A DNA stretch of 64,000 bases from Escherichia phage vB_EcoM-RPN187, in the sequence record OL770074.2; one strand, written 5' to 3'. This document shows positions 23,095-34,381 of the stretch, piece by piece. The translations under genes and the position numbers were made by a program. Numbering within the stretch: position 1 is the first letter of the stretch; every line of letters begins with the position of its first letter. The notes under the pieces are model-generated. The model searched no databases, was not told the origin of the DNA, and saw only the letters and a program-made list of their open reading frames with translations.

Positions 23095-23643
23095 TTAACG
23101 AGCCCATTTGATAATTTCTGTAATCAAATTATTACGTTCGCTTGCATTAAATCCTATAACTTTGTTAGCACTATCATGATTAAGTAATTGATACGTTTGG
23201 ATTTTGTTATGAATTGCAAACTCTTCAAAATATGAAATGACTGTATTAAAACCGAATGAAGACAAAGTAATAAGGTCGTCTTCAAAACTTTCAGTCATTT
23301 CGTTACGTGTTAAAATAATTGTGAACACATCATGGTTTTGGCAAAGACGAACATAATCCTGTTCATAAACGTCAAGAACCGAGTCCACATCTTGTCGAAT
23401 ACGTCCATAAACCCAGTTACTAATATATCCACGGTCTAACAGATAAATCTTAGTAGGGTCTAAATAATTCAACATCGTTTCGAAACAGCCAACTTCATTT
23501 CGAGACTTAACATCAAAACGTCCATCAACTGTTCGTTTAGGGAAATCAATCTTTACATATCTTTCACTAATTTCCATTATGTCATTAATGAAAGTTGTTT
23601 TACCAGCATTATCCGGGCCATCTACTAAAATAATTTTAGCCAT
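23095..23643 (-). CDS. thymidylate kinase-like P-loop nucleotide kinase
   Basis: 182 aa; N-terminal ILVDGPDNAGKTT P-loop and LLDRGYIS (TMK DRY-like) motif; SD GAGGAA. Confidence 0.55.
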   Translation of the reverse strand: MAKIILVDGPDNAGKTTFINDIMEISERYVKIDFPKRTVDGRFDVKSRNEVGCFETMLNYLDPTKIYLLDRGYISNWVYGRIRQDVDSVLDVYEQDYVRLCQNHDVFTIILTRNEMTESFEDDLITLSSFGFNTVISYFEEFAIHNKIQTYQLLNHDSANKVIGFNASERNNLITEIIKWAR

Positions 23644-23644
23644 T

Positions 23645-24544
23645 TTATTCCTCGATTACGACATCTTCATATTTAGGTATATTATACGGCGAAGAAATTA
23701 AAGCATTAAAGTAGATGAACTCGCCAAGACCTGGATGGAATACTTCTTCAGGATTTTCGAAGTATTGAATCTTCGGACGTCCTTTAAGAATTTGATAGTA
23801 CTCAGTTTTAGTTGGTTTAAAAATTCGAATCAGCGCTTCTTCAGGATACTTATTTCTGTCGAAGCTATTATTTGGATCGGTTATATAAAGCGGTTGACCT
23901 AATTGAATTGCACATTCAACCACTTGTTCAAAACGATAACACGGGTCACTAATTCGAAATGGATGAAAAATACCATCTAGATGAATAGGAGCCAAATCAC
24001 CTACAAGACGCTGCATGATGGAAGGACGTATAACTTTCTGGGTTACGATAATCTTATTACCATCTGCACCTGCGTTAACCAGCACTTCTTTTTGACGTTC
24101 ATTCAACACAGTAGTTTGAAGTGAACGATTAACCGACAACATGTCGGTTTTTAAGAATTCGTCAATGTAAAAACGTGGTTTATTAGGGTCTGCAGTGATA
24201 TTGAAATTGAATTCTACATCAAAAGCGCCGTCATATCCAGTGATATCTGTGATTAGAAAATCACAATCATAATAAGCAATTAATGAATCAACCACAAATT
24301 CATTTTCAGACCAGAAATATTTACGAGTGTTATACGCGTTATCTTTATACCATAATGGAACAAACTTAAATTCTGGGAAAAGACGTTCGCATTCTTTAAT
24401 ATCAGATGCATTACGTGGATATGTAATAACATCACCTGGATTAGCACGGTGCAAATGAAGTTGGAAGTTGCCATCCTTAAGGATAGCATACTGTCCAGTT
24501 TCATAAGACCGCATACTCAAGATAGGTACGCGGAAAATAGCCAT
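23645..24544 (-). CDS. hypothetical protein at the T4 beta-glucosyltransferase locus
   Basis: 299 aa, ATG overlapping gp42 stop (TAATG); no motif recognised. Confidence 0.5.
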   Translation of the reverse strand: MAIFRVPILSMRSYETGQYAILKDGNFQLHLHRANPGDVITYPRNASDIKECERLFPEFKFVPLWYKDNAYNTRKYFWSENEFVVDSLIAYYDCDFLITDITGYDGAFDVEFNFNITADPNKPRFYIDEFLKTDMLSVNRSLQTTVLNERQKEVLVNAGADGNKIIVTQKVIRPSIMQRLVGDLAPIHLDGIFHPFRISDPCYRFEQVVECAIQLGQPLYITDPNNSFDRNKYPEEALIRIFKPTKTEYYQILKGRPKIQYFENPEEVFHPGLGEFIYFNALISSPYNIPKYEDVVIEE

Positions 24545-25260
24545 TAGTCAAGAAATCCTTTAACATAATCAAAATCACGTTCAAACACATGGGCACTTAC
24601 CATGGTATGAGTATAATCACCAACTTCTACACCACATTCGTTAGCGATATAATGAAGTAATTTTCCTTGGAGATAAAAATCCAACTGCATAACAACAGCA
24701 CAGTTCTGAGAACGCATATGACAGTGGGTATAAAGCTTACCATCACGAATATAATAAGTCACTGAGTCGGTACATGGATATTCAAGTGTTTCGTCTGAAT
24801 CAAGCAAAGCCTGATCAGAACTTTCTAGAATTTGGAACACAACTCTTCGAGAGTTAGGTTTTTCTTTAAGTTCTTTTAGAAGAGTTGGTAACTGGGCCGC
24901 AATGCGAGGACCATAGAAAGTGTTGAAGTTCGCAGGCAAAGCATCTGATTTTGGTTTAGAAATAAATTTAGCGACGTTAGGATATGCCTTAAATGCTTCT
25001 TCTGCATCAGTACCACCAGAAATCATAAATTTCCAGAAATCTTCAGCATATTCATAAGAGATGCGATTAATACGTGGGTCGGTCATTTTGAATGATGAAG
25101 GGGTATCAACAACTACTGTCATAGACCCAATTTCATTACAACGTCCAATACGAGAATCAGTTACGAATTCCGGGTTTTCTAAAATTTCACGATTGACTGC
25201 TTTAAATGCGGATTGAAAATCTGCGGCTTTAATATATTTCATTGTGTTATGTTTTCCCAT
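24544..25260 (-). CDS. 42: dCMP hydroxymethylase gp42 (thymidylate-synthase fold)
   Basis: 238 aa; CTDSVTYYIRD...MRSQN resembles recalled T4 gp42 active-site region; SD GAGGT. Confidence 0.7.
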   Translation of the reverse strand: MGKHNTMKYIKAADFQSAFKAVNREILENPEFVTDSRIGRCNEIGSMTVVVDTPSSFKMTDPRINRISYEYAEDFWKFMISGGTDAEEAFKAYPNVAKFISKPKSDALPANFNTFYGPRIAAQLPTLLKELKEKPNSRRVVFQILESSDQALLDSDETLEYPCTDSVTYYIRDGKLYTHCHMRSQNCAVVMQLDFYLQGKLLHYIANECGVEVGDYTHTMVSAHVFERDFDYVKGFLD

Positions 25261-25278
25261 GTTTACCTCAATACAGTT

Positions 25279-25302
25279 ATTATATACTCAATTCATAAAG
25301 CT
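25279..25302 (-). promoter_or_regulatory. possible middle-type promoter (MotA-box-like AGCTTTA 11 nt upstream of -10 TATAAT) before gene 42
   Basis: box deviates from TGCTT consensus at first position. Confidence 0.3.
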
Positions 25303-25393
25303 TATTTGAATTTCTTAGCGATGTTGATATAACGTAGAGCTTCGGCATCGATACTTCCAAGGACGCTATGAAGGAACGCGTCGACATAGTATT

Positions 25394-25543
25394 CTAGTTG
25401 AACAGGTTCTCTTTAATCACTTTAGCCGCTTTAGTTTCAAACAGGCCCATAAGGGCCTTTTTAAGAATTTGTTCGTTGTTGTTAATTTTAATAGTCAAAA
25501 TCTCTTCGTTAAGTTGGTGATTAAAAGTTTTTCTAGAAATCAT
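25394..25543 (-). CDS. possible small ORF (49 aa) coupled to upstream gene by ATGA overlap
   Basis: own translation MISRKTFNHQL...; contains a GGCCC/GGGCC hairpin, so may be non-coding. Confidence 0.25.
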   Translation of the reverse strand: MISRKTFNHQLNEEILTIKINNNEQILKKALMGLFETKAAKVIKENLFN

Positions 25544-26709
25544 TCTGGGTACCTCAAAGCGTCATCAGAGTTAGTTATATCAATAATAGATATAGAGTTT
25601 TCCGATAACCCATTTTTAGATAACTGACGTTTATAATATCTTTCACAATATGTACACGTCGTCCCGCAGATTTCATTAGCACAATCGAAATCTGGATGTT
25701 TGAACCACCTTTTTTCTAAAAAGCCATCTAACAAAGAGGTTTCAATATTTACCGTATGTGAAAACTCAGTCTCATTTTCAAGAGTGAAAATGGTCTCTAA
25801 AGGCTTCCACAATTCCAACAAATTACCTTCAAATTTTTCGGAAGCATAAGCTTCAAGAACTTTCAAAATGTAGTCTGTGCTACCTGTACGTCCTGAAACT
25901 TTGAATTGAGTGATACCAATATCATTATAAAGTTTCAAATCTTGAGGACGAACAAAACGAGTTCTCAACCAGTTAAATGGGTCTGTATCACGAGCTTTAA
26001 TACAGTGTTGCATTGGATATCCATTTAAGGATTTGGCATCATCTACTGTAACGTCGGTGCTATGGAAAATATAGCAAGAGTCACGATAACTACAATGTGT
26101 TGTATACCCTTTACCAGCATTAGAACAGAACTCATTTACAAGAACTTCAAATATTATATTGTTCTTATTGCAAAACTCTGCTGCACGCTTCAGGAAAGAA
26201 ACTGAACGGTTCTTATGAATTCCACAACAGACCTTTTTGATATTATACTGGTCATGCAAGTATTTGATTTGAGTTACAGCATCGACATGTAGAATTGTTG
26301 AAACTTCAATCTCAATGTCTTTATTGACTTCACGAACAATTTCCATAACAACAGGGTTAGCGATAGTAATACGCCATACGCCTATTGACCAAAGATACTG
26401 AACATAATCCTGAATAGCTTTCTTCTTCCACTCAACTAGTTCTCTTTTTGAACCAGGATTTATCGTGTTGAGTGTATAGTTAAAGCAAATACCTAATTCG
26501 TTACAACGTTTAACGTAATCTTCTAACATCTTTTTGTCAACGTCAGGAAGCCTAAAATCAGGTCTGGCTGCTACAAAAGCCATTTCTCTTGTAGAGCCGT
26601 ATACTTCGTTTATCAAGCTATTAGGATAAGTTTTATTGAGCTCTACGATTTTATCAAGAAGAGCTAAATCAAAATTCGTTCCGATTTTAAAGGTATTCAT
26701 TTTTTGCAT
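25540..26709 (-). CDS. hypothetical protein with weak resemblance to peptidase U32 (PrtC/RlhA/UbiU-type) family
   Basis: 389 aa; Cys-rich EFCSNAGKGYTTHCS and FKVSGRTGS reminiscent of U32 signature/LKIEGR motif; assignment tentative. Confidence 0.45.
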   Translation of the reverse strand: MQKMNTFKIGTNFDLALLDKIVELNKTYPNSLINEVYGSTREMAFVAARPDFRLPDVDKKMLEDYVKRCNELGICFNYTLNTINPGSKRELVEWKKKAIQDYVQYLWSIGVWRITIANPVVMEIVREVNKDIEIEVSTILHVDAVTQIKYLHDQYNIKKVCCGIHKNRSVSFLKRAAEFCNKNNIIFEVLVNEFCSNAGKGYTTHCSYRDSCYIFHSTDVTVDDAKSLNGYPMQHCIKARDTDPFNWLRTRFVRPQDLKLYNDIGITQFKVSGRTGSTDYILKVLEAYASEKFEGNLLELWKPLETIFTLENETEFSHTVNIETSLLDGFLEKRWFKHPDFDCANEICGTTCTYCERYYKRQLSKNGLSENSISIIDITNSDDALRYPE

Positions 26710-26756
26710 CTCGCCGTTAATTGATGCGATGGTTTTTGCAGGTCTTACTTAAATTA

Positions 26757-27158
26757 TTATAGATTCGGTTTATATGATTTAAATGTTTCGAATTCGCCTT
26801 TATTCATAAGAGCTTTGAATTCGTCAGGACGCATAGCTTTGTCGTCGATAATCCAATCATATACTGGTTTATGTGTTAGCAAATTATGGTACTTCAATCC
26901 AATGTTTGCCAAGTTCTGAATCAGACTTGGGAGAATGTCAATTGCTATACGACCCGGACCGACTGACTTCATACCGCGAGCAGTGTAAAGCGTTATGGTA
27001 TGCCCTGCATCATACAGGGCATTAATGGCAGACACCATTTCGACGTCTGGTTTGAAGTTCACGTAATCACGATTGTTATTCCACTCTGTTATACAATCAT
27101 CGACATCAAAACAAAGATTAAGCATGTTTTCTACACGGTGCATTAGATTCGTTCCCAT
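26757..27158 (-). CDS. small HAD-superfamily-like phosphatase (start uncertain)
   Basis: LCFDVDDCIT resembles HAD motif I; alternative starts at M6 (TAATG coupling) or M12. Confidence 0.45.
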   Translation of the reverse strand: MGTNLMHRVENMLNLCFDVDDCITEWNNNRDYVNFKPDVEMVSAINALYDAGHTITLYTARGMKSVGPGRIAIDILPSLIQNLANIGLKYHNLLTHKPVYDWIIDDKAMRPDEFKALMNKGEFETFKSYKPNL

Positions 27159-28828
27159 TGATGAGTGATATCGCCACCGATTGGACGATAGGAAACACCA
27201 GTTTCTTTATCAGTTAGTACCCATTTACCAGGATTTTTTGTAATCAGAGTAGCCGTTACAGGTTCTGCTACGTCATAACTAATAGAGCCGTCCTGAAGTA
27301 CACGGCCCATGTTACGTAATTGCTTAGTCAGAAGTTCCATACCTTTATAATATGCGGCTACCGCTTTAAGTGGATTATTCTTGAAATAACCACCTAATGC
27401 AATCCAGATAATTGCCACTGCCAAATGATGATACTCGTTAAACGAACTCATCTTTCCATATTTGTAAACTAATGGATTGATGTTAATAGTCACATTACAA
27501 GTTGTTTCATCAATAGTAAACTGTCCCCAGGTCGGATTAGCGTTGAATTCATCATACCCTGAAACAGCATAAAGCACTTTAGCTTCGTCATACAATTTTG
27601 GCCCGTAAATCTTGGTTTCACCAAAATATCCACGAGGGTCAATAAACTTGACTTCACCATTATCAGTAATCATAGTATTACTGAAGTTCGGGTCACCATG
27701 AATAACAGAGTACTGTCCCTGAGAACGGTTATGATAACGAATAAGGTGTTCTAAAGCTTGTCTCAACATTGGCTTCAGACGTCCAATCTTAGTGTAGTTC
27801 ACATGTGTGATTTTACCAAATGAATCAATCAATGGTTGAATACTTTCACAACGATCAATAACTTTCGTATAGAATTCTTTAGTGAAATCACGACGAACAG
27901 TTTCAGGACTTACAAAATAAGTGTCTGTGCTGAATTTCAGTGCATCTAAAATTGCATCAACAATTTGTGGACGAGCAAGACTTGATTTGGATTTAATATA
28001 TTCAAATGCCGGCTTACCTTTAATGCGTTCCATTTCAAAGTTATTTTCATTAACAGAAACTAACTGAGGAACTGAATCTGATTTCACTTTAAGATACCAT
28101 GAAATCTCATCTTTCTGAAGAGCTCGGCCCTGTTCGGTTAATGCGAATTTAGTTACAGTTTCTTCACCAATTTCAACTGCGTTAAAACTACGATTAAGTT
28201 CACGAACTTCATGAGCTTTTTCAAGTTTAGGCATATCACCTAAATCAATTAGATTCATAAGCTCTGATTTATTGAATGCGCTGCCGTAAAGGAATTCTAC
28301 GAAATCACGTCCTTTGCAGTATTCATGAATTTCCTCATCAGTAGAACCCATATAGAATTCCCAGTCTTTGAACTGATAAATTCCTACAACATTACCACCT
28401 GTTGAACCTACGTTAGTGATATTTTCACCGTCGAAATTATATCGACATTCGTCGCCCTTAACATAGATTGCGTTAACATTCCAAGACCACGAACCAAAAT
28501 CAGGAATAATATCACACCAGTTAACAATTACATTATGGCCGTCTAAATCTTTGTGCAATTTAGCAAGAGCATAAGCAGAACCATATGCTTCATCAACTGT
28601 ACGAATAGTCACATTGAACCCTTCTTGCTCACAATAAGCTCGAACAGTTTCAGCAAATTTTGAATGAACTACTACAATAATTTCATCTGCGCCAAGGTCA
28701 GAATAAATTGTATACAAATTGCTCAGAATAGTGTCTTGTTTATAGTTAACAAGCACCTTAGGAATATGATGCGTTATTGGATACAAACGAGTTGCCAGTC
28801 CAGCACCAAGAATAACAGCTTTTTTCAT
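27143..28828 (-). CDS. bifunctional sugar-phosphate nucleotidyltransferase (N-terminal) / APH-like kinase (C-terminal)
   Basis: 561 aa; N-terminal ILGAGLATRL (GxGxR NTase motif); C-terminal HGDPNFSNTMI and FIDPRGYFG (Brenner/APH kinase motifs); SD GAGGA. Confidence 0.7.
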   Translation of the reverse strand: MKKAVILGAGLATRLYPITHHIPKVLVNYKQDTILSNLYTIYSDLGADEIIVVVHSKFAETVRAYCEQEGFNVTIRTVDEAYGSAYALAKLHKDLDGHNVIVNWCDIIPDFGSWSWNVNAIYVKGDECRYNFDGENITNVGSTGGNVVGIYQFKDWEFYMGSTDEEIHEYCKGRDFVEFLYGSAFNKSELMNLIDLGDMPKLEKAHEVRELNRSFNAVEIGEETVTKFALTEQGRALQKDEISWYLKVKSDSVPQLVSVNENNFEMERIKGKPAFEYIKSKSSLARPQIVDAILDALKFSTDTYFVSPETVRRDFTKEFYTKVIDRCESIQPLIDSFGKITHVNYTKIGRLKPMLRQALEHLIRYHNRSQGQYSVIHGDPNFSNTMITDNGEVKFIDPRGYFGETKIYGPKLYDEAKVLYAVSGYDEFNANPTWGQFTIDETTCNVTININPLVYKYGKMSSFNEYHHLAVAIIWIALGGYFKNNPLKAVAAYYKGMELLTKQLRNMGRVLQDGSISYDVAEPVTATLITKNPGKWVLTDKETGVSYRPIGGDITHQWERI

Positions 28829-28869
28829 GTTGTGGTCCTCATTGGTAAGTAGGAGTATTGTACACTATT

Positions 28870-29013
28870 CTAGTTAAAGCATTCATACTTTGCTTGTAGT
28901 CCAATCATAATCCATCCGATTATAAGAGTCGGAATCATTACTGGAGCCGTTAAGCTCCAGTAGATAGTCATGACAAGCATCAATAGTAAAAGTCCTATTG
29001 TTATTGCTTTCAT
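28870..29013 (-). CDS. possible small two-TM membrane protein (47 aa), coupled to the SIS gene stop
   Basis: own translation MKAITIGLLLLMLVMTIYW...; ATG overlaps upstream TGA. Confidence 0.4.
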   Translation of the reverse strand: MKAITIGLLLLMLVMTIYWSLTAPVMIPTLIIGWIMIGLQAKYECFN

Positions 29014-29645
29014 TGTTCGCCTCGTAACATGGCACCTAGTGCACCGCCAGGGTGGAACTTAAGGAAGTCATTAGAGGTAAATCCACGTTCAGACGAAAGG
29101 TTGATAGCAAACGTATCGATAAGCGCTAACAACAATGTAGTGGACATGGTCGGAGCCAGAGAATTCTCATCAACCTCTACTGCGATGCCTGTACAGAACG
29201 TATAATCAAAAAGAGCTTCGTATTCTTGTGGAATGTCCGGGTTACAATGCAACAGAATCTGTTTGACGTTCGGACGAATCATTTTAAGATGCTTAGCCAC
29301 GCCTATCATTTCTTCAGTTTTACCAGAACGACTAATATGAATCAACACATCATTAGGCGCAATGAATCCTGCATCACCGTGAGAATAATGTCCAGTGTTC
29401 AAGTACATACTCGGGATACCGAGTGAAGCAAATGTCTCAGAAGCTTTAGTTGCAATATTAGCATTCTTACCAACACCTGTAATAATTACTCGGCTTTCAT
29501 AATTACTAAGTCCAGGACGTCGAAGAGTTTCTAGAATAGCATTATAACGAGCAGGGTTTTGACTAATTACTTTGGCCATAGCGGCCAAAGAAGAAGCTTG
29601 TTTTATGATTGCGTCAATAGCGATAGTAATAGGAGTAGTTTTCAT
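29010..29645 (-). CDS. SIS-domain sugar-phosphate isomerase (KdsD/GutQ-like arabinose-5-phosphate isomerase)
   Basis: 211 aa; ITGVGKNANIA and ISRSGKTEE SIS motifs; SD GAGAG. Confidence 0.7.
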   Translation of the reverse strand: MKTTPITIAIDAIIKQASSLAAMAKVISQNPARYNAILETLRRPGLSNYESRVIITGVGKNANIATKASETFASLGIPSMYLNTGHYSHGDAGFIAPNDVLIHISRSGKTEEMIGVAKHLKMIRPNVKQILLHCNPDIPQEYEALFDYTFCTGIAVEVDENSLAPTMSTTLLLALIDTFAINLSSERGFTSNDFLKFHPGGALGAMLRGEQ

Positions 29646-29685
29646 ATTTCTCTCATTTAATTAGTTTGCCGTCCATGTCATTATA

Positions 29686-32397
29686 TCAAAAATCGAACAT
29701 ATCGAACAGAGATGCTTTCTTCTCGTAATCGAGTTTCGCTGCTGATGTGAATCCTTCAAGTGGTTTAATAAATGTCTTCTCAAGGAGAACAGTGTAGTCC
29801 ATCCAATGAAGTACGTCGTCTTTAATTAAATCTGTGATTTCAGTACCAGAAGGCCATGCGATACATTTATCACCGAATGGGTTTCCTTCACGTAAAGGCA
29901 GAACATATACTTTTTCACCTTCTACAACTTGTGGTGCATCGATATTACCTTTGATAGCACGGTTATACGTCAGAATTCCACGAATATGGAATGGGCATTT
30001 AGGACCAGGGAATCCACCTACATCATATTTAGCAATGTTATTCGCAGAAGATACTGACGCGATGCTAATATAATTCAATTGACGGAATTCTTTTTCAAAC
30101 TCTTTAAAATATTCTTGTAATGATTCTTCGCCTTCCTGAAGCATACGACGAATACATTCTTTAAGAGCTTTCTGTACTGCTTTAGGAGTCGAAGATTTCT
30201 GAGTCTCTAGACCCATGATTTTGAGTTTAGGCTCAGCGTATCTGGTTCCTTCCATATCCCACACGTTTAATGCATAACGTTTCTTACCAGTCCAGAATCC
30301 ACCAATACCTTTAGAACCGAGTGGAGGCCCAGCGATAGCTTCTCGGTCCATGAACATTAAGTGTTGTTTATTGTTCATGTATTCACACATTTCACGGAAA
30401 CCTCTATCAATAGCTGGTTCCATACGTTCACGTGCAAACTTATCTAAGAAGTCTACCCAATGGTTGGTATCACGGAATTTAGATTCACCAACCTTATCGA
30501 TAATTTTATCAGCAGATACGTAAATAGAGTCTGTATCACCATAAAGAACGAAAGCTTCACCTTCTGTGCCACAAACTTCATTCAGATATTCATTAACTTT
30601 ACGTTCAATCCACTGTAAAGCCATTTGCCCGAATGTTGTGATTGCAGTAGCATTACGCAAATCGTAATAACGGAACCAAACGTTGCCAAGTGCACCATAA
30701 AGTGAGTTGATAAGCAATTTACGGTTAATTTGGGCAGTCATACCTGCAACTTCAGTACGTTGAGCTCTAAACAACATTTCATTAAGAGATTTAGCAGACA
30801 ACTTTTTAATCTTTTCTTTAATCTCATCACTGAAGTCGAAACGATAATCAACATCTAATGGTTCGTCAACAGAAAGATTAGGATTATGCAATGCCTCTTT
30901 AATTATTTCACCATTACGTTGAGCTGCAAGCATGTAACCTTTATGTTCTTTACGTTGATTAAAGACCTTAGTGATTTCAGTTGGAACAACACCGTCACGG
31001 TCTTTATAATACATCATGCCGTTAGGAGAACAACTGTACACATCAGAAGGACGTTCAGCAACAGCGTTAATATAATCATGTAATGGAGCTACTTTAAACG
31101 TTCCTGCTATTGTTTCTGGGCTAATATTCACTTGGCGAATAATACTTGGATACAGAGATGTAAGGTCGAAACTCATTACATATTTGTATCGATTTGGAAT
31201 AGGTTCCTTAACAAAAGCGCCTGGATAAGGTTGAACCGGGTGAGAACGACCTTGTGGAATCACCTTGTTCTGCTCTTTAAGGCTATTAAAAATAATAGCA
31301 TCCCATGTTTTAATTGGACTAAACACAGATTGAATCTGTATCTTAGCATAATAACCCATATCCAAACTCAAGTTGATGAACTGACGCTTAGCATCAATTT
31401 GCAATACACGATACACGTCGATAATGTTATAAGAAATATATCGTTGGTGATTGCTTTCACGAAGCTTAGAAATAGGGCCGTCATATTTCAGTTTACCAAC
31501 GTTCAATTCAAATTCTGAAATGTAATCCAGAGAATATGACGGTTGATTGGTAAAAGAGAATTTTTTGTAAAGGTCAATGTAATCAAGAACAGAGATACCG
31601 AACAATGTAATGATTTCACGAGAACCATACATGTTTTCGATAACTTTAACACGAGTTTTACGATGTGGTGATAAACGTTTCGCAGTAGATTCGCCAAAAA
31701 TATTCTTTATTCGGTTATACACATACGGAATATCAAATGACTCAACGTTCCATCCAGTCAAAACGACAGGAGTTTTCTGTTGCCAGAAGTTGAGATATTC
31801 CATCAACAATTCTTTTTCGTTATCGAACGGCATATAAATGATTTTATCGATAATTTCGGATGGAACTTCATCACCACCTTGTTCTTGAAGCTTAGCCGCA
31901 ATTTCGATAGACCATTCTTCTACATTACCATATGGAGAATTCAAAAGGTCAAATACGTAGAACCTGTCGTCAATTGAGTCATAATGAGTGATAGCATCAA
32001 TCGGGTGTTTTGCTTGTGACGGCTCAGGGAACCCATCCGGAGATGTTACTTCGATGTCGAAGTTAGCCACACGAATTTTTGTATGGTCGTATTTGATTTC
32101 ATAGTTATAAGTGTCAGACAAATACGCCAATTTGAAATCGTCCATGCCAAGTGCTTCAAGTCCGATATCTTCCATGCGTTTAATCCATTGGGAGGCATCA
32201 CGCATATTGGCGAACAACTTACGAGTACACGGCTTACCGTAGATATCGAAATATTTCGTAGCCTGACTTTCTGGACAATGAGCAAACAGTGATGGTTTAT
32301 ATTCTACTTCACGAGTACGTTCACGGCCGTTAGAATCGATGTAACGTTCAAAAATTGAATCACCAATCTGTTCAACCGTTAAGTAAAATTCTTTCAT
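29686..32397 (-). CDS. 43: DNA polymerase gp43 (family B, with 3'-5' exonuclease)
   Basis: 903 aa; exo and pol motifs (FDIE, YGDTDS, SLYGALG); T4 gp43 898 aa. Confidence 0.92.
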   Translation of the reverse strand: MKEFYLTVEQIGDSIFERYIDSNGRERTREVEYKPSLFAHCPESQATKYFDIYGKPCTRKLFANMRDASQWIKRMEDIGLEALGMDDFKLAYLSDTYNYEIKYDHTKIRVANFDIEVTSPDGFPEPSQAKHPIDAITHYDSIDDRFYVFDLLNSPYGNVEEWSIEIAAKLQEQGGDEVPSEIIDKIIYMPFDNEKELLMEYLNFWQQKTPVVLTGWNVESFDIPYVYNRIKNIFGESTAKRLSPHRKTRVKVIENMYGSREIITLFGISVLDYIDLYKKFSFTNQPSYSLDYISEFELNVGKLKYDGPISKLRESNHQRYISYNIIDVYRVLQIDAKRQFINLSLDMGYYAKIQIQSVFSPIKTWDAIIFNSLKEQNKVIPQGRSHPVQPYPGAFVKEPIPNRYKYVMSFDLTSLYPSIIRQVNISPETIAGTFKVAPLHDYINAVAERPSDVYSCSPNGMMYYKDRDGVVPTEITKVFNQRKEHKGYMLAAQRNGEIIKEALHNPNLSVDEPLDVDYRFDFSDEIKEKIKKLSAKSLNEMLFRAQRTEVAGMTAQINRKLLINSLYGALGNVWFRYYDLRNATAITTFGQMALQWIERKVNEYLNEVCGTEGEAFVLYGDTDSIYVSADKIIDKVGESKFRDTNHWVDFLDKFARERMEPAIDRGFREMCEYMNNKQHLMFMDREAIAGPPLGSKGIGGFWTGKKRYALNVWDMEGTRYAEPKLKIMGLETQKSSTPKAVQKALKECIRRMLQEGEESLQEYFKEFEKEFRQLNYISIASVSSANNIAKYDVGGFPGPKCPFHIRGILTYNRAIKGNIDAPQVVEGEKVYVLPLREGNPFGDKCIAWPSGTEITDLIKDDVLHWMDYTVLLEKTFIKPLEGFTSAAKLDYEKKASLFDMFDF

Positions 32398-32446
32398 TTA
32401 ATTTCCTTTAGACGAGTTATTGTCTTTTGTTTGTTGATGAACTTAT

Positions 32447-32466
32447 TATACTCCAAATGGGACCGA
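32447..32466 (-). terminator. stable stem-loop AAUGGGAC-UUCG-GUCCCAUU between regA and gene 43 (terminator-like, no clean U-run)
   Basis: 8-bp perfect stem with UUCG loop about 60-80 nt upstream of gp43 ATG. Confidence 0.4.
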
Positions 32467-32482
32467 AGTCCCATTGCTTGCT

Positions 32483-32851
32483 TTAATTACCAATTGTATA
32501 TTTTGCTTTCAAAGTCCAGTCATCTTTCTGTTTAAAAGAGATAACACGGAAGTTATTAGTCAGGCTAAATAGATCTTCACGAGCAGAGTCTTCAATAACA
32601 ATCAATCCCCAGTCTTCAAGCAACTGAGCAATCGAATCACGTCGCTGATAGTCTTCACCATCAATATCAACCTGACGTCCGTCCATACGCAGCATTTCTT
32701 TAAAGTGGACGATATAGTACTTACCTTGCTTTTGGAGGATATGACAAGACTGGTAAAGGACTTTATCCTTGTTATTAGCGATGCCCATACGGGTCAAAGT
32801 CTCTTTGACTTTCAGAAAATCTTCAGGGTTCTTCAATTTAATTTCAATCAT
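32483..32851 (-). CDS. regA: translational repressor RegA
   Basis: 122 aa from ATG (MIEIKLKNPEDFLKVKETLTRMGIANNKDKVLYQSCHILQK), matches recalled T4 RegA. Confidence 0.85.
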   Translation of the reverse strand: MIEIKLKNPEDFLKVKETLTRMGIANNKDKVLYQSCHILQKQGKYYIVHFKEMLRMDGRQVDIDGEDYQRRDSIAQLLEDWGLIVIEDSAREDLFSLTNNFRVISFKQKDDWTLKAKYTIGN

Positions 32852-32853
32852 TT

Positions 32854-33417
32854 TTACCATTCCAATGCTAATTTTTTAAATTGTTTTTGTTCTTTCACAT
32901 TTTTTGTAACTTCTTTGAGAAACTCATCAGTGACCATGGCCTTCAGTTCTTTAAGGACTATTGGCAACTTGTTATTTTTTTCAAGGAGCCGCTTATACTC
33001 AGTAGCATCATTCATGTTGATTGTGTAATGTTTCATCAACAGTTTGATAACTAGTAACTCTGAAGTGTCTTCGACTAGTTTAGCCCATTTAGAGAATCGA
33101 CGACCACGCGGAATTGCCGCCATCATATAGTTGAAGTGCGCTTCATCACTTAATTCAGAACCGACTAAGTTCATCATGTAAACAGCTGGCATACATTCTG
33201 GGAACTGGGATAATGAGTTCTCAACCATAAATTTTGAGTAGTCGACCTGAGCAATTGACATAGATTTCTTTTCATTAATAGCATTAATGATTTTAAAGAA
33301 TTCATTCTCAGGTTTTTCTTTAAACATATCAGCACATTTTTGAATCGCATCAGCGTCATTAGACTTCCATGCAATTTGGTGCTCGTTAAGCTGGACGTCA
33401 TCATCGAATAAGTTCAT
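32854..33417 (-). CDS. 62: clamp loader small subunit gp62
   Basis: 187 aa as T4 gp62; between gp44 and regA; TAATATG junction. Confidence 0.8.
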
Positions 33418-33418
33418 A

Positions 33419-34381
33419 TTATTTCCAAGTCAGTTCGCAGGTCAGTTGAAGAAGCATATACATAACATGTAATTCAATATTACTTGCTAATCCATGAAAC
33501 TTATTGTTTTCGCCTGCAATTTCATAAAGCGAAATAATACTTTTACCAGGTGCAACTTGGTCATAACATTCTGAAACTAATTTATCGATGAACCATGAAT
33601 AATCTGCGGCATATTTTGGAGCTAATGCACGAAGCTGTTTGATATCTTTGTTCTTCATTGCTTCGATAACATCAGAGACTGTGCCACGGTCATTAGTTAC
33701 GATAGACAAAATACCCGCATCAAGAACACCTTTAGACGAGTACTGGTCTAATTGACCAATTGTGCGACGAAAGTCTGGGAAGTTCTTTTTAACCAGAGCT
33801 GCAACAACTTTCATATCAGCGATTTCGATATTTTCGTTCTTACAGATTTCAACCATACGATGAATCATTTTCTTCATCATCGAGATTTTATCTTCTTCGG
33901 TTGGACGTCCGAATTCGATAACTCGACAACGACTACGTAATGGTTCAATAATTCCATCGATGTTGTTAGCAGTAATAATAATAGAGCAGTTACTAGAGAA
34001 TTCTTCCATAAACGTACGAAGGTGACGTTGTGATTCGGCGAGACCACTACGGTCAAATTCATCGATAACAATAACTTTCGGCTTGCCTTCCATTGAGACT
34101 GAACGAGCAAATGCGGTTAACGGTCCCCGTACAAAATCAATCTTACAATCAGAACCGTTGACGAACATCATTTCGGCATTGATATCATTACATAATGCTT
34201 TTGCTACGGTTGTTTTACCTGTACCAGGAGAAGGAGAGTGCAAAATAATATGAGGAAGTTTTCCTTTAGATACTAAAGACTTGAATGTTTCATGGTCATA
34301 CGCAGGCAGAATACATTCGTCAATGGAAGAAGGACGATATTTCTGTTCTAGAATGTGTTCTTTGGAATTGATAGTAATCAT
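33419..34381 (-). CDS. 44: clamp loader ATPase gp44 (AAA+, RFC-like)
   Basis: 320 aa; Walker [14 protein letters not shown] motif (LRSRC). Confidence 0.9.

Follow-up and report, generated by a model that had tools for sequence, protein, structure and literature searches.

A predicted single-domain arabinose-5-phosphate isomerase within the DNA arabinosylation module of an RB69-like T-even phage

The 64,000-nucleotide stretch of DNA considered here (the window) comes from Escherichia phage vB_EcoM-RPN187 (sequence record OL770074.2), an RB69-like T-even phage of the genus Mosigvirus, and the gene at issue encodes a SIS-domain protein next to the DNA polymerase gene. The open reading frame (ORF) called at this locus begins with ATG, specifies 211 amino acids, and occupies exactly 29010-29645, stop codon included, on the minus strand. 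Its product contains the Pfam SIS domain PF01380 above cutoff (41.2 bits against 25, E = 1.7e-10), so that the SIS-domain ORF reported in a preliminary description of this DNA is borne out. A chance ORF is excluded because homologs of the protein are encoded in 275 phage records, 191 database proteins match it at E<=1e-5, and its profile matches PHROG 5670, "arabinose 5-phosphate isomerase," at 2.3e-116. Over the 5 kb that surround the ORF, the window shares 99.3% identity with phages AV112 and AV113, and at least 80% of this segment is carried by 152 phage records. In RB69, the corresponding ORF055c/gp55 (NP_861745.1, named "arabinose 5-phosphate isomerase" in RefSeq) is 99% identical to the window protein and likewise follows gene 43; there is no substantive difference at the isomerase, and the window phage is a close relative of RB69 rather than RB69 itself. 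Another relative, Escherichia phage F2 (NC_054913.1), is filed as a Tequatrovirus in the RefSeq taxonomy, yet it matches the window at 98.7% identity in this region and has all of the arabinosylation module described below.

Gene 43, which encodes the DNA polymerase (29686-32397, minus strand), is recognized from its ORF, its Pfam DNA_pol_B domains, and the RefSeq annotation of relatives. The order of transcription is 45-44-62-regA-43-SIS, all on the minus strand, with 40 nt between gene 43 and the SIS gene. As both of these genes are on the minus strand, the SIS gene lies directly downstream (3') of the polymerase gene; the earlier placement of it "directly upstream of" or "just before" gp43 is true in plus-strand coordinates only.

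Comparisons of sequence, profile, and predicted structure agree in predicting that the protein is an arabinose-5-phosphate isomerase (API), far from RpiR, GlmS, and GmhA. Among the NCBIfam models, those for KpsF/GutQ (112.7 bits, 2.2e-32), KdsD (107 bits, 1.2e-30), and GutQ (79.9 bits, 1.7e-22) lead, with the next SIS family at 2.4e-06 and the remaining SIS families at no more than 26.6 bits; the other subfamilies weighed were GmhA, GlmS, RpiR/MurR, HxlB, AgaS, and MurQ, of which the best RpiR-type model scores about 1e-06, with AgaS and HxlB weaker. BLASTP against the authentic Escherichia coli KdsD of the MG1655 genome gives 36% identity over 192 amino acids (E = 2e-33). The sole matches in a sequence search of the PDB are 3etn, which is the API of Bacteroides fragilis; 5uqi/5vhu, which is c3406 of E. 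coli CFT073, crystallized with arabinose 5-phosphate (A5P); 2xhz, the SIS domain of KdsD; and 3fxa. A profile built from 47 phage homologs finds the same four (3etn, 5uqi, 2xhz, and 3fxa) at 2.8e-39 to 3.5e-22, with the best other SIS protein at 1e-07, and the top solved structure in this search is the enzyme crystallized with A5P. With the predicted structure of the isomerase as a Foldseek query, ranks 1-9 are all APIs. The KdsD/GutQ-like identity that the preliminary description had proposed is supported in this way by NCBIfam, BLASTP, the PDB profile search, and the predicted structure, and it is APIs that lead the matches, not the GlmS- or RpiR-type SIS proteins whose appearance as best matches had been named as the contrary outcome.

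Residues K60, H89, E112, E157, and H198 of the phage protein align with K59, H88, E111, E152, and H193 of KdsD, which we take to be the active-site list of Gourlay et al. 2010. As a cross-check on that list, the 2xhz chain ("Probing the active site...") has Ala at the position of K59 of genomic KdsD. All five equivalents are invariant in KdsD, GutQ, and the 47 phage homologs, down to 41% identity. The invariance of this catalytic Lys, His, and Glu set, the lack of a DNA-binding domain, and a margin over RpiR-type models of 24-26 orders of magnitude in NCBIfam and of more than 15 orders in the PDB profile search together make it extremely unlikely that the protein is instead a non-catalytic SIS-domain sensor or regulator responding to sugar phosphates, in the manner of RpiR/MurR effector domains or DiaA.

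In its domain organization the phage protein is an API of the single-domain type, with about 200 amino acids, a SIS domain only, and a full-length structural match. It ends 13 residues past the HPGGALG motif, whereas KdsD (328 amino acids) and GutQ (321 amino acids) run on for some 120 residues more, through the tandem C-terminal CBS domains that are absent here. These two-domain E. coli APIs are 36 and 29% identical to the phage protein across the SIS domain, with the five catalytic equivalents kept, and feed Kdo and lipopolysaccharide (LPS) synthesis. The c3406 (5uqi/5vhu) and B. fragilis (3etn) enzymes are single-domain proteins like the phage isomerase, at about 29-30% identity, but belong to capsule or Kdo-type contexts, whereas the phage gene is part of a DNA-modification module.

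That module, for arabinosyl-5-hydroxycytosine (the "Afh" type of RB69, DLP3, and HY126), is complete between gene 43 and uvsX, at 23095-29645, the parts tested being the kinase/nucleotidyltransferase, the HAD phosphatase, the ThyA-like 5-hydroxy-dCMP synthase, the glycosyltransferase, and the nucleotide kinase. Its genes are tightly packed on one strand down to uvsX and are 97-99% identical to RB69 gp54 through gp45; all window features with coordinates in what follows are on the minus strand. Immediately after the isomerase gene comes a 47-amino acid, strongly hydrophobic ORF (28870-29013; PHROG 3610, 4.5e-27), the start of which overlaps the isomerase stop by 4 nt (ATGA). It is 62% identical in Klebsiella and Erwinia phages, with a common QAKYECF end, and is also kept in Yersinia relatives; the Acinetobacter and Pseudomonas modules do not have it, and Klebsiella phage CP-p-KP-21072 lacks both it and the isomerase. 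The next gene encodes a 561-amino acid bifunctional sugar-phosphate kinase/sugar-1-phosphate nucleotidyltransferase (27143-28828; RB69 ORF53_52c, AfhE-like), assigned from Pfam, NCBIfam, and published work (PMC13326640, PMC6024577), with Pfam NTP_transferase at its N terminus and weak kinase matches at its C terminus. A small HAD-type phosphatase follows (26757-27158; RB69 gp51, AfhF-like; TIGR01689, 4.3e-13), for which the role is taken from PMC13326640 and the likely true start is an ATG at 27143 that shares 1 nt with the upstream stop; its RefSeq homologs have 128 amino acids. Homologs of this phosphatase are named "phosphoheptose isomerase" in RefSeq and PHROGs, yet the window protein matches the capsule-biosynthesis HAD model TIGR01689 and has no SIS domain, and the name appears to be a propagated misannotation.

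Farther along are a 389-amino acid U32-family protein (25540-26709; RB69 gp50; Pfam Peptidase_U32, 42.4 bits against a cutoff of 22.4) and a 49-amino acid remnant ORF (25394-25543) which, by DNA alignment with RB69, F2, and KLB31, sits in the slot of chorismate mutase in related genera. The thymidylate-synthase-like 5-hydroxy-dCMP synthase (24544-25260; RB69 gp48; PHROG thymidylate synthase, 7e-47) is 99% identical to RB69p048, which has been shown experimentally to be an O2- and flavin-dependent 5-hydroxy-dCMP synthase (PMC13326640). The last two genes encode the putative DNA arabinosyltransferase 1 (23645-24544; RB69 gp46:47), which is 98% identical to the RB69 locus and assigned as in PMC13326640, and a nucleotide (dNMP) kinase (23095-23643; RB69 gp45; PHROG thymidylate kinase, 7.5e-45; PMC13326640, Table 1).

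The chemistry of the modified DNA gives this gene set its context. RB69 DNA contains mono- and di-D-arabinofuranosyl-5-hydroxycytosine, as determined by nuclear magnetic resonance (NMR) and gas chromatography-mass spectrometry (GC-MS) (PMC13326640), and arabinosyl-5-hydroxycytosine has been shown in the virion DNA of both RB69 (PMC13326640) and Mosigvirus NP (PMC13390438). The kinase, phosphatase, and uridylyltransferase steps have been reconstituted for phage HY126 as AfhE plus AfhF (PMC13326640). The D configuration of the sugar in RB69 DNA fits an origin from D-arabinose 5-phosphate. In the proposed pathway, the isomerase would take D-ribulose 5-phosphate (Ru5P) from the pentose-phosphate pathway of the host and convert it to D-arabinose 5-phosphate; the 561-amino acid bifunctional enzyme would phosphorylate C1, the small HAD phosphatase would strip the 5-phosphate, and the nucleotidyltransferase domain of the bifunctional enzyme would then make UDP-D-arabinofuranose, from which phage glycosyltransferases would put arabinose on the 5-hydroxycytosine of newly replicated phage DNA. 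We consider it very likely that the gene encodes a single-domain D-arabinose-5-phosphate isomerase (EC 5.3.1.13) that opens the UDP-D-arabinofuranose route, probably read through from gene 43 and serving to boost the flux into this route. Homology, fold, conserved catalytic residues, gene linkage, and gene fusion are what the analysis shows, and the enzyme activity, the reasoning on flux, and the co-transcription are inferences from them.

The functional assignment itself is already in the literature. Thomas 2018 (PMC6024577) singled out ORF055c by its SIS homology and proposed it for the Ru5P-to-A5P step of UDP-arabinose synthesis, Lee 2026 (PMC13326640) proposed gp55 for the same step, and PHROG 5670 carries the annotation. 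With its role put forward in 2018 and again in 2026, the isomerase gene by itself adds nothing new; of some value here are the gene fusion and cross-lineage linkage that tie the isomerase to the kinase/nucleotidyltransferase, the optional place of the isomerase in the module, and an association of the U32 gene with chorismate mutase and DAHP synthase that may point to a candidate oxygen-independent route of DNA-base hydroxylation. The isomerase would be the entry point at which a central metabolite, Ru5P, is diverted into a virus-specific nucleotide sugar, and arabinose on every cytosine would allow escape from restriction enzymes and CRISPR nucleases. Among the phages often considered for therapy are those of the RB69 type, whose DNA resists standard enzymatic handling and nanopore base-calling.

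Genes for the isomerase, the kinase/nucleotidyltransferase, and the phosphatase are contiguous in phages of Escherichia, Yersinia, Klebsiella, Erwinia, Acinetobacter, and Pseudomonas. In an unrelated phage-like contig of 25% guanine-plus-cytosine (GC) content with a PolIII-alpha replicase, genes for a glycosyltransferase, the isomerase, and the kinase/nucleotidyltransferase stand in a row. The conserved linkage is that of isomerase, kinase, and phosphatase, not that of isomerase and polymerase. It extends to gene fusion: among the homologs of the 561-amino acid enzyme are proteins of 890-955 amino acids (P0204, P0208, P0209, P0211, P0212, P0215, and P0228) in which HAD, SIS, NTP-transferase, and kinase domains follow one another in that order in one chain. 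The SIS domains of the fused proteins retain the catalytic motifs and share 30-36% identity with the phage isomerase. One such gene, on a GCA_013558355.1 contig (L008, 8001-10781), adjoins genes for MutS+HNH, Rpb2, and Rpb10 and is thus in a giant-virus-like setting; another fused protein is from the transcriptome of the amoebozoan Ceratiomyxa fruticulosa. These giant-virus-like proteins combine the counterparts of three phage enzymes in one polypeptide, although the HAD_2-type domain that they carry differs from the small phage phosphatase. As judged from domain content, a complete pathway from Ru5P to nucleoside diphosphate-arabinose may be present in one protein in viruses of eukaryotes. 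Given the eukaryotic-virus-like context (MutS+HNH, Rpb2, Rpb10), the likely target of the fused proteins is a glycan and not DNA.

This linkage also bears on whether the phage isomerase gene could be an auxiliary metabolic one, increasing Kdo, LPS, or capsule synthesis in the host and having no part in DNA modification. Homologs of KdsD, KpsF, and GutQ do normally feed Kdo synthesis, and the PHROGs category is "moron, auxiliary metabolic gene and host takeover." The isomerase gene, however, is accompanied by no genes for KdsA, KdsB, or KdsC and is always contiguous with those for the kinase/nucleotidyltransferase and phosphatase, inside a cytosine hydroxylation/glycosylation module; in other viruses it is fused to both, and a strictly lytic phage has no obvious gain from extra LPS. 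A role of this kind is accordingly very unlikely, and the assignment to DNA arabinosylation is preferred.

Several observations nonetheless weigh against a phage API that supplies DNA arabinosylation. The whole-protein cutoffs of the NCBIfam models (TIGR00393, 203.7; KdsD, 505; GutQ, 481) are not reached by the bit scores given above, and the match spans model positions 2-153 of 268 only; the cutoffs are missed because the models include the CBS pair, which single-domain APIs lack. A literature search of incomplete coverage found no enzyme assay of the window isomerase or of any phage ortholog, and in Lee 2026 (PMC13326640) the Ru5P-to-A5P step is predicted from structure searches only. Among Klebsiella phages there are 26 U32 matches and at most 3 isomerase matches, leaving at least 23 records with a U32 gene and without the isomerase; in Klebsiella phage CP-p-KP-21072 (L016, 4327-9991), the rest of the module is present, the isomerase is missing, and the kinase/nucleotidyltransferase gene directly follows that of the polymerase. 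The module can exist without the isomerase. Since this gene is dispensable in some related modules, host KdsD/GutQ could in principle suffice, and the Klebsiella phages without it either rely on host A5P or activate another sugar. The flux argument set out below rests on an assumed burst size and on general background numbers for LPS. Finally, the phage clade has the motif H-x-x-HGD where KdsD, GutQ, 3etn, and 5uqi have E-A-x-HGD. The clade-specific His is H86, three residues before the catalytic His (residues 84-91; window 29386-29394); almost all phage homologs keep its equivalent, which is also seen in a very distant homolog from a phage contig (L022), and in the fused giant-virus-type proteins the position is N or D.

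H86, in place of the Glu of the cellular APIs examined, favors an alternative in which the protein is still a sugar-phosphate isomerase of KpsF/GutQ descent but interconverts some other ketose and aldose phosphate, supplying a sugar that is not arabinose. Related modules may, moreover, carry other pentoses, as Shewanella phage Thanatos, which has the kinase/nucleotidyltransferase and U32 genes, contains an unidentified pentose. Set against this are the identification of D-arabinofuranose in RB69-type DNA by NMR and GC-MS (PMC13326640), the retention of all five catalytic-equivalent residues, and the fact that the closest structure by profile was crystallized with A5P. The kinase/nucleotidyltransferase is also far more divergent where the isomerase is missing, that of CP-p-KP-21072 being 43% identical to the enzyme of the window against 65-71% elsewhere, which fits an isomerase and kinase paired through A5P. 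A different sugar is on this evidence improbable, and a D-arabinose-5-phosphate isomerase is still the favored assignment.

The preliminary description had further claimed that, by virtue of its placement, the isomerase gene would allow the modification precursor to be made with the replisome. Between the stop of gene 43 and the start of the isomerase gene lies a 40-nt gap (29646-29685), analyzed from its sequence and by promoter and terminator scans, that contains a GAGAG Shine-Dalgarno-like sequence and a lone TATAAT (29680-29685); no terminator, -35 element, or MotA box was found in it by the sigma-70 and terminator scans or by MotA-box and late-promoter searches. Across 24500-33500, the sigma-70 and terminator scans are both uninformative (32 promoter-like sites, 32.1 expected; 6 terminator-like sites, 4.3 expected), and none of either kind falls in the gap. 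A search for the T4 late promoter TATAAATA gives 4 matches against 7.3 expected, none of them in the module. Middle-promoter-like sites are a different matter in number: the pattern TGCTTNA, a 10-14-nt spacer, and TANNNT occurs 24 times across the window where 6.5 matches are expected, and none of 100 shuffles gives as many. One of these T4 middle-promoter-like sites, found by pattern search and consisting of the MotA box TGCTTTA and TACAAT, is at 28857-28881, just upstream of the kinase/nucleotidyltransferase gene. A second motif of this type occurs at 23679-23705, just upstream of the nucleotide kinase gene.

With neither a terminator nor a recognizable separate promoter in the 40-nt gap, the isomerase gene could plausibly be co-expressed with the replication genes and is probably read through from gene 43, so that its product would be made along with the replication proteins. 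To that extent the earlier claim is still plausible, but as an argument from placement it is weak: the upstream position on which it had leaned does not hold, and adjacency to the polymerase gene is not a conserved feature. Between the polymerase and isomerase genes there are six small ORFs in Acinetobacter phage Kimel and five in a Pseudomonas phage, about 2 kb in each case, and in phage PAU no polymerase gene is near that of the isomerase. A functional reason for the siting of the gene next to the polymerase was considered and rejected, as the adjacency is not conserved in Kimel, the Pseudomonas phage, PAU, or CP-p-KP-21072. The slot between 43 and uvsX is a plastic region of DNA-modification genes in T-even phages and is where gene 42 and beta-gt are found in T4 (PMC6024577).

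A reason for carrying the isomerase may be found in demand. In Mosigvirus NP, mono- and diarabinosylation occur in a ratio of 1:4, or 1.8 arabinose units per cytosine (PMC13390438). With the GC content of the window (37.15%) and the length of the RB69 genome (167,560 bp), a genome has about 62,000 cytosines, and for an assumed burst of 100-200 and 1.8 units per cytosine the demand comes to about 1-2 x 10^7 arabinose units per infected cell. By our own rough estimate, this is several-fold the A5P normally committed to Kdo per generation. A phage copy of the KdsD/GutQ activity most likely serves to raise the flux and to free it from host regulation, the latter because the isomerase is without the CBS regulatory pair; a CBS-less enzyme expressed early would meet the demand for arabinose.

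The U32-family protein encoded at 25540-26709 may offer another way to make the 5-hydroxy base. The only characterized proteins of this family (RlhA, TrhP, and UbiU/V) are associated with O2-independent hydroxylation tied to prephenate, although in vitro reconstitution of a direct hydroxylase activity has not been achieved; formation of 5-hydroxycytidine in 23S rRNA requires RlhA and depends on prephenate and Fe-S clusters, and in the UbiU/V pathway the oxygen comes from prephenate (PMC5727448, PMC10990095). Pairwise BLAST and phmmer comparisons of the phage protein with E. coli RlhA, TrhP, UbiU, and UbiV give no significant match, nor does a PDB sequence search give any, and it is the Pfam profile alone that places the protein in the family. 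It is the best-conserved protein of the module, at 83-86% across genera and above gp43. In phages of Erwinia, Klebsiella (two lineages), and Yersinia, a type II chorismate mutase above the Pfam cutoff is encoded between the U32 and ThyA-like genes; at the two loci checked closely (Erwinia Virsaitis27 and Klebsiella KLB31), its start and stop each overlap the adjacent gene. On the 25%-GC contig, the gene after a U32 homolog (54% identical) encodes a DAHP synthase, with a match at 2.6e-70 as compared with 2.9e-17 for Kdo8P synthase; both genes sit with those for the glycosyltransferase, isomerase, and kinase/nucleotidyltransferase, and no ThyA-like gene occurs within 21 kb. On phage-like contigs of 60 kb and 466 kb, U32 homologs lie between dCMP deaminase and replication genes. 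As to hosts, and with few independent lineages only in the pattern, U32 is seen only in phages of Enterobacterales and Shewanella, which are facultative anaerobes, and the Acinetobacter and Pseudomonas modules are without it.

The association with chorismate mutase and DAHP synthase, together with the host distribution, suggests an O2-independent, prephenate-dependent C5 hydroxylase. That the U32 protein is such a cytosine hydroxylase, providing a second route to the 5-hydroxy base beside the ThyA-like synthase, is offered as a tentative and somewhat doubtful proposal; if true, cytosines of the phage could be hydroxylated and subsequently arabinosylated under the anoxic conditions of the gut. 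No link between a phage U32 protein and prephenate was found in a literature search of incomplete coverage, so that an earlier proposal is possible, and gp50 is listed in Lee 2026 (PMC13326640) only as a "sugar or heterocycle reductase."

In the window, the small ORF after the U32 gene (25302-25543) is cut to 49 amino acids by a 2-nt insertion relative to RB69 ORF049c (79 amino acids), and its counterpart in phage F2 stops two codons later through a GAA-to-TAA change. Neither ORF049c nor the 49-amino acid ORF matches Pfam CM_2 even at E<=10, the F2 version likewise has no match to chorismate mutase, and these Mosigvirus ORFs are therefore not called chorismate mutases; the 49-amino acid ORF looks like a decaying gene.

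A further feature lies upstream of gene 43, where the RNA of the minus strand can form a hairpin at 32456-32475 with a perfect 8-bp stem and a UUCG loop (AAUGGGAC-UUCG-GUCCCAUU). It is located 8 nt past the regA stop, is followed by TATAAT, and lies about 60 nt upstream of the start of gene 43; it may act in RNA stability or processing or as an operator.

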